NCBI GenBank assembly: GCA_964373565.1
Contig: CAYJVF010000002.1
Span: 1 to 26,204, forward strand
Length of the DNA: 26,204 nt
DNA from: an uncultured Candidatus Saccharibacteria bacterium
Lineage (GTDB): Bacteria > Patescibacteriota > Minisyncoccia > Minisyncoccales > Staskawiczbacteraceae
Reading direction: 5' to 3'
Position 1 is the first letter of the stretch; each line of letters starts with the position of its first letter. The notes under the pieces are model-generated. The model saw only the letters and a program-made list of their open reading frames with translations. It was not told where the DNA came from and did no database searches. Both the position numbers and the translations under genes were made by a program. This document shows positions 8,372 through 25,311 of this stretch, one piece after another.

Positions 8372-8500
8372 TATAGAACTATATAGCATCTTAATAATAT
8401 TTCCAATACCTACAAATACGCATATTTATAGCAGTATTCACACATATTCGCGCATTTACAAACGGTCACAAATACAAAATTAGAACAACCTTAATATTTT

Positions 8501-8548
8501 TAACCCAGTCTTACAAAATAAAAGCTTTTATTTTGTAAGACTGGGTTA
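8501..8548. repeat. Perfect 48-bp palindrome downstream of the PaaX/Cas2-like gene
   Basis: TAACCCAGTCTTACAAAATAAAAG|CTTTTATTTTGTAAGACTGGGTTA. Confidence 0.95.
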
Positions 8549-8561
8549 GTTTTTTTAGTTT

Positions 8562-9101
8562 TTATAGTTTTTCTATTAAAAATACCTTTACATAATTATC
8601 TAAAGAGTACCATTGCAACAACTCTTCTGTTTTTTCAGACACATCATAGGGAGTCACCCATACGCTTTGTTGAAACATTTTATACCCCATATTCTGCAAA
8701 ACGCTTCTCAATAAATTGCGCGCTTTTTGATGTCTTTGAGGAATGTCAAAAATAATCATAATCCATTTGCCGTCCCTTCGTTTTGTTTTTTTTGAATCTT
8801 CAAACTTAAATCTTGCCCGCATTGCCTTATCTGCCCCCTTTTTAGTTAACATAACAGCCTGATTTCCCTGCAAATTTTTGACTCTGATAAAATTATTTCT
8901 TTTCAAATAGTGAATAAGATTGTTAAATGCCCGCTTATTTTTCATTTTTCTATAGCGTTTGAAAATTGGGTTCTCAAATCCAAAAGGCTCGCCATAACTC
9001 CTTTTACGCTGGACAAAGGGACGGACAATATCTCCTGCCTTTTCGAAAAAACTATACAAGTCCCAGAGCAACTGATCTGTAATGTTTGTTTTAATTGCCA
9101 T
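8562..9101 (-). CDS. PaaX-like protein: winged-helix plus Cas2-like/ferredoxin-fold domain
   Basis: LIHYLKRNNFI..VMLTKKG (wHTH wing), then DGKWIMIIFDIP..RNLLRSVL..GY..QQSVWVTPYD. Confidence 0.8.
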   Translation of the reverse strand: MAIKTNITDQLLWDLYSFFEKAGDIVRPFVQRKRSYGEPFGFENPIFKRYRKMKNKRAFNNLIHYLKRNNFIRVKNLQGNQAVMLTKKGADKAMRARFKFEDSKKTKRRDGKWIMIIFDIPQRHQKARNLLRSVLQNMGYKMFQQSVWVTPYDVSEKTEELLQWYSLDNYVKVFLIEKL

Positions 9102-9162
9102 TTTACATTAATTTTTTTAGTTTTTACTTTGCAGAATGTAAAATCCCACATACTTTCATTTT

Positions 9163-9212
9163 AATCCATAGTCTTAGAAATTAAAAGCTTTTACTTTCTA
9201 AGACTATGGATT
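9163..9212. repeat. 50-bp palindrome (one mismatched pair) upstream of the PaaX/Cas2-like gene
   Basis: AATCCATAGTCTTAGAAATTAAAAG|CTTTTACTTTCTAAGACTATGGATT. Its 36-bp core is 32/36 identical to 8507-8542. Confidence 0.95.
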
Positions 9213-9314
9213 TAATTACTTTTTTTGTTTTGTTTTATTGTATTTTGTTTTTTATTTTATTTTTTGCAAGAAAAAAGCCGTTGAAGTTATCTTTGGTTTT
9301 ACGGCAGCCGATCT

Positions 9315-9560
9315 TTAATCAGAAAAGTTATCTTCCATCTCCGGATATTGCTTGAGGTATTCTCGTACTTGAACAATAAGGTGACTTTTGGAATCAGCAA
9401 TATATTCACGAACTTCTTTGGACAGAGTCTCTTGACTATTTAATATTTTTTCTGCTTGCTTAGCGAGCTTGTTAATACTCCTAACTCTATCCAATTCTAT
9501 CATCTGTCTTTGAATTTCAAATCCACTAACTTCTCCTCTTTCTCTGTTTTCTTCTGACAT
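9315..9560 (-). CDS. Hypothetical helical protein (81 aa)
   Basis: AAGGAG SD before MSEENRERG (9560); no family recognised. Confidence 0.6.
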   Translation of the reverse strand: MSEENRERGEVSGFEIQRQMIELDRVRSINKLAKQAEKILNSQETLSKEVREYIADSKSHLIVQVREYLKQYPEMEDNFSD

Positions 9561-9667
9561 ATTTTTCTCCTTTTTTATTAGAACCGACCTTTTCACCCTA
9601 ACTTCATGTTACTCCCCCCGCAAAAGTCAATAGCGCTCATACTTAAAATTTGCTAAGATTATAAAAT

Positions 9668-23598: not shown

Positions 23599-25311
23599 CT
23601 ACATCTTAGTTGGAGCAGATATTCCAAGCAACCACAACCCATTTTTAATAATAATAGAAAATGCCTGCGTCAACGCAACCTTATGGGGCGAAAACTCATC
23701 ATTTTTGTCTACAATTTTATTATTTGCATAAAAATTATTAAATTCACGCGCCAGTTCGGTCAAATACAATGTAATGATATGTGGCTCATATTCTTCACCG
23801 GCTTTTTGGACAATTTCAGGAAAACGCACCATCATTCTTTCCAAATCACTTGTTTTTTTATTCGTAGATTTGGATGTCATTAGTAAATTAGTATCGCCCT
23901 TAATTTTTTCGTTTTTTGCTTTTCTTACTACCGACTGCGCTCTCGCATAACTATATTGCAAGTAGGGACCGGAGTCACCCTCAAAAGAAATTGACTTGTC
24001 AAAATCAAAAATAATATCGCTTCCAATTGACTGCTTTAAAATGGAATATTTAATTGCGCCAATGGCAATTTTTTCCATATCTTCATTTTCTAAATTTCTA
24101 TCACCTATTTTTCTCTTAATATTTTTCTTAACATTTTCTATAAAGGATTCTACCGGCACTATTGTGCCGGTTCTAGAAGACATTTTCCCGGAAGGCAACT
24201 TTAGCAATCCATGTCCAATGTGTTTAGTTTTTTTGGCTAAACTGGGATTAATTTGATTTAATGCGTCCAACATAACTTGAAAGTATGAATTTTGTTCGTT
24301 CGCAGTAACAATGATGGATGTATCGTACTTAAAATATTTATATTTCTTAATGGAAAGAGCCAAGTCTTTTGCTTCGTAAGTAGGCTGGCCCTCCGAGTTA
24401 ATGAAAACCCTTGTGTGCGATCCAAATTTTTCACCTTTAAAAATTATGGCGTTATTGTCTCCTCTTTCAAATATACCTCTTTTTTCACCCTCTAAAACTA
24501 TCTTTTTCCCATCATTGGCAACTTCTCCCTCAAAGAAATATTTATCAAATCTTGTATTTAATCTTTTATAAATTATTTCAAAATTTAATAAGCTTTCTTT
24601 TCTACCCAAGTCATATAACTTGTTGATTTCCCTATCCGATCTTTCATATATTTTTTTATTGATTTCTGCAATTTCTTGCCTTTGAACTTCATTTTCTTCA
24701 TAAGCTTTGTGCCCAAAGGCGTACGCTTCTTGTAAATTAACTCCTCTTTTTAACGCCCAAACCGCTTTCGCTACATGCATACCAATATCGCCCTGATAAT
24801 TTACCCTTTTTAATTGAGCCTCTGAAAATTCAAAAATTCTGGCAAGAGACTCTCCGATTATATTGGGCATCAAATGGCCAATATGAAACTTTTTGAAGGG
24901 GTTGGGGTCGGTATACTCAATAATTACCTTTTTATTTTTTAAAATACTATTTTTTCCAAACTTATCTTTTTCTTTCAAAACTTTTTTTAAATTATTGGCA
25001 AAAAATTCTTTTGATAAAAAAAAGTTGATAAACCCGGGTGGCACCGCCTCTACTTTTTCCATGCTAACATTCGTACGAATGTTAGCATGGATATTGATAT
25101 TGTTAACGATGTCAATAGCCACATCTAATGGGTTTTTATTCAAATCCTTAGCCAGTGCTAAAGCAACACTGGTAGCATAATCTCCGTGCGTTTTTTCTTT
25201 AGAAATTTCAACCAAAACCTTCGTACTCAAACTTTCGCGGTCGCGAAAGTTTGAGTACGATGTTTTCAATGCCTCTTCAATTATTTTTTTTAGTTCTTCT
25301 TGTATACTCAT
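23599..25311 (-). CDS. argS: Arginine--tRNA ligase
   Basis: HGDYAT, PGFINF, EYTDPNPFKKFHIGH, KMSSRTG and GDSGPYLQYSYAR. Confidence 0.98.
   Translation of the reverse strand: MSIQEELKKIIEEALKTSYSNFRDRESLSTKVLVEISKEKTHGDYATSVALALAKDLNKNPLDVAIDIVNNINIHANIRTNVSMEKVEAVPPGFINFFLSKEFFANNLKKVLKEKDKFGKNSILKNKKVIIEYTDPNPFKKFHIGHLMPNIIGESLARIFEFSEAQLKRVNYQGDIGMHVAKAVWALKRGVNLQEAYAFGHKAYEENEVQRQEIAEINKKIYERSDREINKLYDLGRKESLLNFEIIYKRLNTRFDKYFFEGEVANDGKKIVLEGEKRGIFERGDNNAIIFKGEKFGSHTRVFINSEGQPTYEAKDLALSIKKYKYFKYDTSIIVTANEQNSYFQVMLDALNQINPSLAKKTKHIGHGLLKLPSGKMSSRTGTIVPVESFIENVKKNIKRKIGDRNLENEDMEKIAIGAIKYSILKQSIGSDIIFDFDKSISFEGDSGPYLQYSYARAQSVVRKAKNEKIKGDTNLLMTSKSTNKKTSDLERMMVRFPEIVQKAGEEYEPHIITLYLTELAREFNNFYANNKIVDKNDEFSPHKVALTQAFSIIIKNGLWLLGISAPTKM
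23859..23898 (-). repeat. In-frame half-arm of the intergenic hairpin family inside argS
   Basis: 32/40 ungapped identity to 11154-11193. An exact 18-mer (23877-23894) matches 23132-23149 in reverse complement. Confidence 0.75.
25058..25091. repeat. Perfect 34-bp palindrome inside argS
   Basis: TCCATGCTAACATTCGT|ACGAATGTTAGCATGGA. Confidence 0.95.
25221..25260. repeat. Perfect 19-bp-arm hairpin inside argS
   Basis: TCGTACTCAAACTTTCGCG-GT-CGCGAAAGTTTGAGTACGA. Confidence 0.95.

Follow-up and report, generated by a model that had tools for sequence, protein, structure and literature searches.

Gene and palindromes at the locus

The window, by which we mean the whole stretch of DNA analysed (26,204 nucleotides), encodes on its minus strand a protein of 179 amino acids (8562..9101) whose open reading frame, profile matches and fold matches identify it as a winged helix joined to a Cas2-like (PaaX_M) domain. 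We refer to it as mini-PaaX. The winged-helix part comprises about residues 45-97 (8811..8969, minus strand) and was delimited by the secondary structure of an AF2 model, in which helices 45-51 and 56-68 are followed by a beta-hairpin wing at residues 72-85; the recognition-helix residue N61 is encoded at 8919-8921. The Cas2-like ferredoxin-fold domain, residues 108-179 (8565..8780, minus strand), is supported by Pfam, TIGR, Foldseek and the AF2 model and contains an invariant D119 as well as the motifs FDIP and QxSVW. PaaX_M (PF20803) was matched over residues 108-175 with 70.1 bits against a cut-off of 24 (E 1.7e-19), Cas2 (PF09827) with 25.1 bits against 23.8 (2e-5) and TIGR01573 (cas2) with 29.5 bits against 24.5, while the score for the PaaX equivalog TIGR02277 was, with 25.1 bits, far below its cut-off of 264.55. 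The N-terminal PaaX winged helix (PF07848) gave no Pfam match to the protein at E <= 1; the AF2 model nevertheless contains a helix-helix-wing arrangement, and the Foldseek and hhalign alignments to PaaX span the winged-helix part. Pfam also gave no match to the PaaX_C effector domain (PF08223), the protein ending at residue 179 directly after the Cas2-like domain, and none to the Y1 HUH transposase domain (PF01797).

With the AF2 model as query, Foldseek returned PaaX (8A39) first, with 124 aligned columns, and then Cas2 structures. The hhalign alignment to E. coli PaaX has 107 columns and covers only residues 59-165 of PaaX. The quality of the model is mediocre (mean pLDDT 65), with residues 1-46 poorly modelled. 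Because a PDB sequence search with the family profile gave matches at chance level only, the link to PaaX rests on the fold search and hhalign. An earlier note, made without database searches, had claimed that the protein combines a winged helix-turn-helix with a Cas2-like ferredoxin fold, and this is supported by the AF2 model, Foldseek and hhalign, and for the Cas2-like part also by Pfam.

Two related palindromes bracket the gene. Palindrome A (8501..8548), located 13 nt 3' of the stop codon, is a perfect 48-bp palindrome without loop; its arms (8501-8524 and 8525-8548) are 100% complementary about a dyad between 8524 and 8525, and it contains a 36-bp core (8507-8542) centred on AAGCTT. Palindrome B (9160..9215) lies upstream and comprises 56 bp with two mismatched pairs. 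Its arms (9160-9190 and 9185-9215) are 94% complementary, its dyad is located between 9187 and 9188, and its start and the end of its core (9170-9205) are about 58-61 nt and about 68 nt from the start codon of the gene, respectively. The two cores, both centred on AAGCTT, are identical at 32 of 36 positions (89%) and differ at positions 7 and 11 from the dyad. At position 11 a C-to-G change is accompanied by the matching change on the opposite arm, whereas the change at position 7 in palindrome B is not. Every position that covaries with the protein (see below) carries the same base in A and B. The outer arms are divergent between the copies and self-complementary within each. Chance occurrences of the degenerate core pattern expected in the window amount to 0.00. 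This anatomy is shown, and most of what the earlier note had described of it held: the perfect palindrome past the stop, the shared core and the divergent, self-complementary outer arms. The 50-bp palindrome that it had placed about 60 nt before the start is confirmed as a version with one mismatched pair that extends to 56 bp, and the compensation it had seen for a C/G difference applies to position 11 and not to position 7. T-rich tails, which it had seen after both palindromes, are indeed present on the plus strand, which is opposite to the genes here; they were rejected as part of the element, since a T-rich stretch follows the downstream site in sense direction in only 6 of 54 family sites. 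Palindromes A and B do not meet the criterion for an intrinsic terminator, i.e. a G+C-rich stem-loop with a U-run on the transcribed strand, and an Rfam search yielded no family at gathering score, only sub-threshold hairpin look-alikes.

On the gene side, the extended arm of palindrome B ends in a -10-like hexamer, TAAAAT (9158..9163, minus strand), which is adjacent to the core and not inside it. The promoter is inferred and unmapped, and a generic promoter scan found nothing at this position; a leader of about 50 nt is possible in the window. TAAAAT starts 25 nt from the dyad, and it is found at the same position in 7 of 56 upstream sites of the family compared with none of 164 control orientations. 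A -10-like hexamer located 12-30 nt from the dyad on the gene side is present in 42 of 56 upstream sites and in 64 of 164 control orientations (p = 5e-6). This overlap is shown: in 75% of loci the hexamer reaches into, or borders directly on, the arm of the upstream copy that faces the gene, and many loci have the upstream palindrome at or ahead of the hexamer, at a distance of only 6-10 nt from the start codon.

Flank pairing and covariation across the family

The family comprises 303 gathered homologues. Among 114 non-redundant homologous loci, 80 (70%) have a private palindrome common to both flanks, i.e. an upstream and a downstream segment whose similarity is above the 99th percentile of mismatched-locus controls; in a smaller set such matching segments were found in 42 of 60 loci. 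The median identity of centre-anchored half-sites is 0.84 within a locus compared with 0.39 between loci, and the downstream copy follows the stop codon at a median distance of 9 nt. All paralogs of the source genome for which both flanks are assembled show the same pairing. The sites are 83-100% symmetric over positions 1-18 from the dyad, and past this core symmetry decreases, with 0.64 for position 19 and 0.3-0.44 for positions from 20 on. As the central four positions are 94-100% symmetric, the family sites have no loop. Flank pairing as such is shown.

The sequence of the palindrome follows the amino acids of the protein it encloses, in order along the site. Covariation was calculated for 66 loci and 2916 residue-by-position pairs with APC correction. 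All of the top 15 pairs combine either residues 57, 60 or 61 of the recognition helix with positions 14-18 or residues 120, 122, 129, 132 or 145 of the Cas2-like domain with positions 1-6, and no crossed pair (helix with centre, or Cas2-like domain with outer box) is among them. The strongest pair of all is residue 61 with positions 15-16: this residue tracks the outer box, residues 120, 122 and 145 track the central hexamer, and residues 129 and 132 track positions 4-6. In the outer box, N61 is found with TCTT (15/17), K61 with TAC[CT] (23/27) and Q61 with [AG]TAG (9/10). Towards the centre, K145 occurs with A at position 1 (11/12), K122 with AACGTT or CAATTG (10/11) and N129 with TA at positions 6-5 (20/24). 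The protein of the window (N61, I120, Q122, N129, Q145) conforms to this code at its own sites, where I120, Q122, N129 and Q145 match the centre AAGCTT and TA at positions 6-5. Such simple residue-to-base rules are testable by point mutation.

The protein tree is poorly resolved, and each covariation is represented by only 2-5 phylogenetically independent pairs on well-supported branches, so that none is significant alone; nearly all of these independent pairs point in the same direction. A Mantel test by protein region was weak (r = 0.08-0.23) and confounded by descent, and the per-column analysis was used instead.

The earlier note had suggested looking among homologues for gene-specific palindrome pairs that co-evolve with the winged helix, and both the pairing and the covariation are positive in this respect. 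It had also stated that a generic genome-wide repeat unlinked to the family would refute its reading. This does not apply, as gene and palindrome are linked family-wide despite one identical solo copy. Its inference that the palindromes are cognate binding or processing sites is supported by pairing and covariation in the absence of binding data. Of the functions it had offered, the -10 overlap speaks additionally for the operator; a role in DNA looping or as ends of a mobile unit is still possible, neither being excluded.

Genome context and additional copies

Palindrome A, the mini-PaaX gene, palindrome B and an orphan ORF of 93 amino acids together form a lineage-specific insertion (8390..9667, no strand assigned) between metG and a conserved gene of 155 amino acids. 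In relatives in which both genes were seen, their distance is mostly 24-93 nt, and two relatives have about 220-235 nt of other sequence there. The insertion is shown: only one of the relatives examined (G001) has a mini-PaaX gene at the metG site, and the empty metG-adjacent sites for which the earlier note had proposed to search are found in the others in the sense that the cassette is absent. Its exact boundaries are not definable because the flanks are too diverged, and the edges of the indel could not be matched to those of the palindromes. No homologue of the 93-aa ORF was found anywhere, and it was rejected as a partner in the module for this reason.

Across the genus the copy number of the family is 0-8 per genome. 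The source genome (0.56 Mb) has seven paralogs with an identity of only about 50-60%. A search for near-identical cassettes at separate positions found none; all identical pairs represent the same locus. Besides the bracketing copies, a solo palindrome on contig C9 (G000:C9:11154-11213) is identical to A over 48-50 bp, which is shown. A clean empty site for it was not found, its position being an intergenic hot spot with different content in every relative. It is the only solo copy for the family of the window; the palindrome families of four paralogs (C36, C26, C46 and C8) have 2-6 each, and these counts are far below typical REP numbers, albeit in a genome of only 0.56 Mb. The C36-family palindrome is found in frame in argS, where it is present or absent among relatives. 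Self-repression of the gene, as proposed below, by itself accounts for neither the C9 solo copy nor the in-frame argS copies.

In total, the genome contains about 110-130 long palindromes of several families. Two further genomes were inspected in this respect. G008, which has no family member, has few palindromes, and of the 14 without loop 11 are terminators with a GC stem; G017, a genome of the genus without close family member, still has many, of terminator and heptad types. The simple classifier used was poor, and palindrome density versus gene copy number in these two genomes was dropped as evidence. Metagenome unitigs break within palindrome A (8519-8528), where the depth reaches about 8 times the value of the flanks and additional flanking sequences appear; palindromes of this kind break the assemblies of these genomes. 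Joints that skip the cassette were not seen in contigs of four public runs, but contigs cannot show absence.

Proposed function, rival readings and known systems

We propose that mini-PaaX is a dimeric self-repressor acting on duplex DNA, with private sites on both sides of its gene, and that gene and sites form an accessory cassette. We consider this reading likely; binding, dimerisation and repression, together with the role of the downstream copy, are inferred. It is likewise probable that the 36-bp palindrome is bound by the protein it encloses, for which there are no binding data. The protein lacks an effector domain; according to this model, it most likely dimerises through its Cas2-like domain, placing the dimer on the dyad of the duplex palindrome. 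Reading of the central ~12 bp would then fall to the pair of Cas2-like domains, and that of the outer boxes, about 15 bp to either side of the centre, to one winged helix each. Since the upstream copy overlaps or abuts the -10 element, its occupation would block this element, and repression of the gene's own transcription by occlusion is the most likely outcome. For the downstream copy, a possible contribution is a loop or roadblock by which the cassette is insulated from metG. Gene and sites would be gained or lost together as an accessory cassette, and the palindrome could also be copied alone to other places, like REP elements.

The rival that survives best regards the palindromes as processing sites. 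Mini-PaaX would then nick or cleave DNA site-specifically, in or close to the centre of the palindrome, by means of its Cas2-type acidic residue, the palindromes would be ends or cut sites of a mobile unit, and solo and in-frame copies would be its products. This reading is compatible with binding and differs from self-repression over the purpose of binding. Residues 120 and 122, two of those that follow the central base pairs, are neighbours of the invariant D119, which would bring the Cas2 “active-site” face onto the dyad. Mini-PaaX retains FDIP and QxSVW, the Cas2 motifs, in alignment positions that are occupied by SEGL and APSLM in E. coli PaaX. Also in favour are the identical C9 copy, the argS palindrome that is polymorphic among relatives, the raised depth and further flanks at palindrome A, and the presence or absence of the cassette. 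On the other hand, no near-identical cassette occurs at two places, the paralogs are strongly diverged, the indel boundaries could not be linked to palindrome edges and, as weak evidence from contigs only, cassette-skipping joints are missing. The equivalent residue of PaaX is likewise acidic (E), which leaves room for a structural reason for the conservation, and the -10 overlap already supplies a regulatory rationale for the upstream site. Without cleavage data, we regard this reading as unlikely. Equally unlikely is a bolder version, in which the Cas2-like domain is a programmable sequence-reading module that places its acidic residue at the central base pairs, and the proteins are nickases or nucleases and not only repressors, creating, maintaining and spreading their own perfect palindromes, including in-frame copies in essential genes. 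If true, the system would be a REP-like replicator in which a Cas2 fold takes the place of the HUH transposase, and possibly a relative of the ancestor from which CRISPR adaptation recruited Cas2.

Very unlikely is the possibility that the palindromes are generic REP-like or terminator hairpins that act as single-stranded DNA or RNA, were spread by Y1 (RAYT/IS200-type) transposases of the genome or are kept as transcript ends, and that the mini-PaaX gene merely lies where they landed. The genome is rich in long palindromes and yields three matches to Y1_Tnp, of which one lies between REP hairpins of the GTAG type; as single strands, A and B form stable folds (-21 and -19 kcal/mol, z about -10), and G017 is rich in palindromes without close family member. 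Against this, the palindrome tracks residues of the enclosed protein at three separate zones, the would-be hairpin loop is as symmetric as the arms, and 39 of 69 arm mismatches are not wobble-compatible, with a non-significant excess of G:T over A:C (19 vs 11, p = 0.2). A T-rich stretch after the downstream copy is rare, the repeats linked to RAYT belong to another type, namely short hairpins with a GTAG tag, and most of the zero-loop palindromes of G008, which lacks the family, are terminators.

Control at the RNA level, in which the protein would bind hairpins in the untranslated regions of its own mRNA and control stability or translation, has equally little to recommend it. Some Cas2 proteins are reported to be RNases. 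The short distance of the downstream copy from the stop codon makes its transcription probable, the window allows a leader, and, on the sense strand, G:T mismatches are slightly more common than A:C, as mentioned. But as the upstream palindrome coincides with or precedes the -10 hexamer in many loci, it would be missing from the mRNA there, the symmetric, protein-covarying central positions are unable to pair in an RNA hairpin, and no Rfam family was matched at gathering score. The recognition helix of winged helices reads bases in the major groove of B-form DNA, and base reading by this helix suits such a duplex.

That mini-PaaX is a genuine CRISPR Cas2, the name given in many homologue records and supported by above-cut-off matches to TIGR01573 and PF09827, is all but excluded by the lack of a Cas1 match in the genome (89% complete), the lack of a CRISPR-like array in the window (as the earlier note had stated), metG and an orphan ORF as neighbours, seven paralogs, an extra winged helix, twice the length of a Cas2 (179 aa compared with ~80-110 aa for the single domain) and PaaX_M as best Pfam match. 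Hundreds of records titled “CRISPR-associated endonuclease Cas2” represent a systematic mislabel of the mini-PaaX family.

No paper describing a palindrome-bracketed mini-PaaX cassette was found in the literature searched. Reading of the central bases of a long palindrome, as it appears here, would be a new use of the Cas2 fold, and mini-PaaX would represent a natural, compact two-module DNA-recognition code, with ~180 amino acids for a 36-bp site. It is puzzling that ultra-small CPR genomes of ~0.6 Mb maintain up to eight orthogonal regulators that seemingly regulate mainly themselves, and whose sites also spread alone and into essential genes. In this family, REP-like repeat systems seem to have arisen by a second route that does not involve RAYT.

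Among known proteins, mini-PaaX most resembles PaaX, the phenylacetyl-CoA-responsive repressor of E. coli and Pseudomonas (PDB 8A39, 3L09; PF07848 + PF20803 + PF08223), a dimer that autorepresses its promoter by occlusion when bound to the long inverted repeat TGATTC-N27-GAATCA (PMC9493321). Both have a Cas2-like middle domain preceded by a winged helix, which for mini-PaaX rests on the model and the alignments, and the scale of the sites is similar, the outer-box centres of mini-PaaX sites being ~28-30 bp apart. In contrast to PaaX, mini-PaaX has no C-terminal effector domain (179 aa compared with 316 aa) and has kept the Cas2 motifs. Its site is symmetric through the whole 36 bp with a centre that covaries with the Cas2-like domain, where PaaX has a spacer of any 27 bases. 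The sites are found on both sides of the gene, several orthogonal paralogs are present per genome, and no regulated pathway is evident.

Like REP/REPIN repeats with their RAYT genes (PMC3116915, PMC3337134, PMC5581495, PMC3733652), the mini-PaaX gene is flanked by its own palindromic repeat, several private protein/repeat families exist per genome, and the gene is old and stays where it is, whereas further copies of the repeat are found at other positions, including within genes. In contrast, mini-PaaX is not a Y1 HUH transposase, and no transposition chemistry has been shown for it. REPs are short imperfect hairpins with a GTAG or CGTC tag (PMC3733652); mini-PaaX sites are 36-bp zero-loop palindromes without either tag and of low copy number, with one solo copy for the window's family and 2-6 for its sister families. 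The genome also contains true RAYT-type genes, which have GTAG hairpins.

Mini-PaaX has the ferredoxin-like beta-alpha-beta-beta-alpha-beta fold in common with CRISPR Cas2, as well as a conserved acidic residue where strand 1 ends and a motif of the QxSVF/W type. In Cas1-Cas2 prespacer structures the Cas2 dimer spans the middle of the DNA duplex, and covariation suggests a similar mid-duplex position for the Cas2-like domain of mini-PaaX. Unlike Cas2, mini-PaaX is fused to a winged helix and comes without Cas1 or array. Cas2 contacts DNA without sequence preference, whereas mini-PaaX is apparently sequence-specific, although this is not supported by binding data. The controller (C) proteins of restriction-modification systems, like other small autoregulators with palindromic promoter boxes, are small dimeric helix-turn-helix proteins that bind a palindrome overlapping their own promoter, and their specificities diverge between systems, which avoids cross-talk. 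By analogy, mini-PaaX might be a small dimer of this kind with a palindrome overlapping its own promoter. It differs from C proteins by its fold, by the absence of linked cargo such as a restriction enzyme, by the second site downstream of the gene and by the solo and in-frame copies of its site.

The mini-PaaX gene and its insertion beside metG

The mini-PaaX ORF (8562-9101, minus strand, 179 aa) is the sole ORF between two palindromes. Palindrome A, a perfect 48-bp palindrome without loop (arms 8501-8524 and 8525-8548, fully complementary), ends 13 nt past the stop codon, and palindrome B, 56 bp long with two mismatched pairs (arms 9160-9190 and 9185-9215, 94% complementary), starts about 60 nt ahead of the start codon. 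Their 36-nt cores (8507-8542 in A, 9170-9205 in B) are identical at 32 of 36 positions and centred on AAGCTT; the chance expectation of the degenerate core pattern in the window is 0.00. This layout, with the 36-bp core and the gene in between, had been described in an earlier note and held on re-measurement. Positions 7 and 11 from the dyad distinguish A from B. The C/G difference, which the same note regarded as compensated on the opposite arm, is that at position 11 and is indeed mirrored; the change at position 7 is uncompensated in B. The plus-strand T-rich tails it described are indeed present next to both palindromes, but only 6 of 54 downstream copies in the family are followed by a T-rich stretch, and we therefore regard the tails as local composition outside the element. 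A 19-nt T-rich direct repeat (8546-8564 and 9108-9126, 18/19 identical) brackets the ORF more closely than the palindromes do, with one copy over the stop codon and the other 6 nt ahead of the start codon; it could be a low-complexity coincidence.

The gene order in the other relatives examined, of the same genus and order, is tatD, csrA, metG, a 155-aa gene, permease and M16 peptidase. Where both were seen, metG and the 155-aa gene are mostly separated by 24-93 nt, and in two cases by ~220-235 nt of other sequence. At this junction the window carries an insertion of 1278 nt (8390-9667) comprising palindrome A, the gene, palindrome B and an orphan 93-aa ORF. Among all relatives examined, only the genome G001 also has a mini-PaaX gene at this place, there as palindrome, gene and palindrome only. 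A search of 5.8 billion proteins, of the fetched loci and of the rest of the genome gave no homologue of the orphan ORF (9315-9596, minus strand), and its only Pfam match is sub-threshold and coiled-coil-like. In several relatives (loci L072, L075 and L095) the spacer between metG and the 155-aa gene consists largely of tandem TAAATCA-like heptamers, and the window's own spacer ahead of palindrome A (8390-8500) contains TACAAAT- and CACAAAT-like units. Genomes of the genus encode 0-8 members of the family; 7 of 26 have none, one of these being a single contig of 98% completeness. Because the neighbours of other paralog lineages are conserved between species and no near-identical cassettes were found at two different places, we regard the gene as old and stationary once inserted.

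In Pfam, the encoded protein matches PaaX_M (1.7e-19), which is the Cas2-like domain in the middle of PaaX, and Cas2 (2e-5). It passes the NCBIfam cas2 model (29.5 bits, cut-off 24.5), which is why homologues are labelled "Cas2" in databases, and falls far short of the PaaX equivalog model (25 bits, cut-off 264). An AlphaFold2 prediction of moderate quality (mean pLDDT 65, with residues 1-46 poorly modelled) has two helices (45-51 and 56-68), then a wing formed by a beta-hairpin (72-85) and, over residues 113-176, a domain of beta-alpha-beta-beta-alpha-beta topology. The top PDB match in Foldseek is PaaX of E. coli W (8A39, 124 columns, E = 3e-4), ahead of many structures of Cas2, and hhalign places residues 61-170 of the family profile on residues 59-165 of E. 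coli K-12 PaaX.

Co-variation of protein and palindrome across the family

The check suggested in the earlier note, a search for gene-specific palindrome pairs around homologues, was run and was positive. There are 303 homologues at E <= 0.001 (55-68% identity), mostly from Candidatus Staskawiczbacteria and other Patescibacteria. We fetched 58 loci from reference genomes, 20 from close relatives and 80 from metagenomes, and 120 were left once near-identical proteins had been removed. Flanks of 160-200 nt upstream of the start codon and downstream of the stop codon were compared, with the 99th percentile of controls, in which the upstream flank of one locus was paired with the downstream flank of another, as threshold. 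A shared segment exceeded it in 42 of 60 loci and later in 80 of 114 non-redundant loci. The median centre-anchored half-site identity was 0.84 within a locus versus 0.39 between loci, and 105 of 118 flanking palindromes had no loop. Within the source genome, the paralogs on contigs C36, C26 and C8 each lie between copies of their own palindrome, all three palindromes being different. The paralog on C31 has imperfect palindrome copies on both sides, that on C7 only a weak, non-palindromic flanking repeat under the control threshold, and for that on C46 the downstream copy alone is assembled.

Across 64 cognate sites from 32 loci, the arms are complementary in 83-100% of sites at positions 1-18 from the dyad. 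The complementary fraction is down to 0.64 by position 19 and lies at 0.3-0.44 further out (position 20 onward), so that we define the functional unit as 36 bp. Symmetry is 94-100% at positions 11-17 and loosest at positions 5-10.

A clear half-site was available for 66-67 non-redundant loci, and in these every protein column was compared with every site position. Of the 2916 pairs, the 15 that rank highest once APC-corrected form just two groups, with none crossed: residues 57, 60 and 61, in the helix before the wing, pair with site positions 14-18, and the Cas2-like residues 120, 122, 129, 132 and 145 pair with site positions 1-6. Residue 61 and position 15 covary most strongly (raw MI 1.02; 99th percentile of all pairs 0.58). 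N61 occurs with TCTT (15/17), K61 with TAC[CT] (23/27) and Q61 with [AG]TAG (9/10). Towards the dyad, K145 accompanies A at position 1 (11/12) and K122 an AACGTT or CAATTG centre (10/11), V120 with E122 goes with CG(G/A) centres and I120 with Q122 with AAGCTT, while at positions 6-5 N129 goes with TA and D129 with TC. The protein tree, built from a short sequence, is poorly resolved, and the 7-15 changes that it gives per trait are upper bounds. Row pairs split only by well-supported branches nearly all change in the same direction, but each rule has just 2-5 of them, and none of the rules is significant by itself once kinship is allowed for.

The window protein carries N61, I120, Q122, N129 and Q145, and the corresponding places in its own sites read TCTT, TA and AAGCTT. 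A, B and a solo copy elsewhere in the genome agree at all covarying positions and differ only at 7 and 11. In the positional orthologue in G001, also adjoining metG, residue 61 is R and the outer box differs; thus, protein and site have diverged jointly at one chromosomal place.

Overlap with a putative promoter and proposed mode of action

Starting at the upstream copy's dyad and moving towards the gene, we scanned for hexamers matching TATAAT at five or more of six positions, including A2 and T6. Such a -10-like hexamer starts 12-30 nt from the dyad in 42 of 56 loci versus 64 of 164 in three control orientations (p = 5e-6), with sharp peaks at 15-16 (26 loci versus 28/164 controls, p = 3e-5) and at 25 (7 loci versus 0/164, p = 5e-5). 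In the 15-16 class the outer box tracked by residue 61 supplies the first -10 bases, and the start codon follows 6-10 nt later. The window belongs to the position-25 class, with TAAAAT (9163-9158, minus strand), where the extended arm of B ends, as part of an inferred promoter; a generic promoter scan upstream of the gene found none. If TAAAAT serves as -10, the leader would be ~50 nt, an inference from sequence alone without transcript data.

We propose that a mini-PaaX dimer would sit on duplex DNA, the Cas2-like pair on the dyad reading ~12 central bp and one winged helix lying on each outer box. Such a dimer would lie over or next to the -10 element, and over or next to the presumed -35 inside the site, and may thereby repress the gene's own promoter. 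PaaX represses its own Px promoter likewise, with the operator TGATTC-N27-GAATCA (PMC9493321). Given the family-wide pairing, the site shape, the covariation and the promoter link, this is the simplest account. Specific binding to the duplex site is likely, in the absence of binding data; repression of its own transcription we favour only by a modest margin, without transcript data. The downstream copy might form a loop, act as a roadblock insulating metG or mark the end of a mobile unit, each being possible.

One alternative, less likely but still possible in the absence of activity data, is that mini-PaaX cuts or nicks its sites. In its favour, the invariant D119 adjoins the residues covarying with the central bases; however, PaaX has a glutamate at the aligned place, so that conservation of D119 alone proves nothing. 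A second alternative is selection on a hairpin. An RNA or single-stranded DNA hairpin cannot pair its central three or four bases, and selection on the hairpin alone would therefore leave the centre free. The central four positions are 94-100% symmetric. Arm mismatches show no significant wobble bias (G:T 19 versus A:C 11, p = 0.2), and 39 of 69 are wholly unable to pair. Identity as a CRISPR Cas2 is rejected, since no Cas1 match was found in the genome (89% complete), seven paralogs of the gene are present there, and the window has no array, as the earlier note had stated for the array.

Solo palindromes and relation to known systems

A solo copy of A on contig C9, 48/48 identical and extendable to 50, lies between gatB and a 472-aa gene. 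Identity over 48-50 bp cannot be convergent, and the DNA must have been copied. The content of this spacer differs in every relative examined, and it is possibly a hot spot for small insertions. In one of them, G006, this spacer (locus L124) holds a solo palindrome that has the same architecture and is also centred on AAGCTT. Palindrome A is covered ~8x as deeply as its flanks in metagenome unitigs, where additional flanks are also present, which indicates that the community holds more copies. Each sister family has 2-6 solo copies.

Assemblies break at the palindromes: unitigs of four metagenome runs end at the dyad of A (8519-8528). Two G001 contigs, C34 and C50, overlap by ~110 nt across the downstream palindrome with a few differences (L100:1-120, L071:1-120). 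The records L015 and L271 (metagenome or genome) are 100% identical from the mini-PaaX start codon onward and differ upstream, possibly by rearrangement or by an assembly chimera at the upstream palindrome.

Palindromes also occur within argS of the window. One of the C36 family, in frame in the N-terminal part (25215-25266; CGATCG-type centre, here CGGTCG), encodes about YSNFRDRESLST; this insert is lacking in several genus orthologues, and a similar one is found in G013 and G007. A second in-frame palindrome (25056-25093, CGTACG centre) encodes about NIHANIRTNVSME in a variable linker that is ~9 residues shorter in most relatives. A distant paralog (31% identity, G000:C8:2848-3669) has three flanking palindrome copies with a 2-nt asymmetric centre (CTCCAG or CTGGAG) and at least six further copies on other contigs, the most REP-like family in the genome.

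No paper with "PaaX" and "Cas2-like" together came up in our full-text literature search, nor anything on palindromes of this kind in Patescibacteria. New in this analysis are the spatial order of the covarying pairs, the quantified -10 overlap and the clean insertion site by metG. With PaaX the family shares the DGKW motif. In contrast to PaaX, which has SEGL and APSLM, it keeps the Cas2-type FDIP and QxSVW, and the protein ends where the PaaX effector domain would start. Like the palindromes of REP/RAYT systems (PMC3116915, PMC5581495), those of mini-PaaX also occur as solo copies, some of them in genes; unlike RAYTs, the protein has no HUH domain. The genome has three matches to the Y1 transposase family PF01797 (C1:354-1210, C65:24-665 and C75:1696-1944), and the gene on C1 (449-1171) has short GTAG-tagged hairpins with the core AAGGCTTAGCCTT on both sides. 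Thus, alongside the mini-PaaX palindromes the genome has a classical REP/RAYT-type system, with hairpins of another kind. We infer, without binding or transcript data, that the module may be a PaaX-type autoregulator with a REP-like side.
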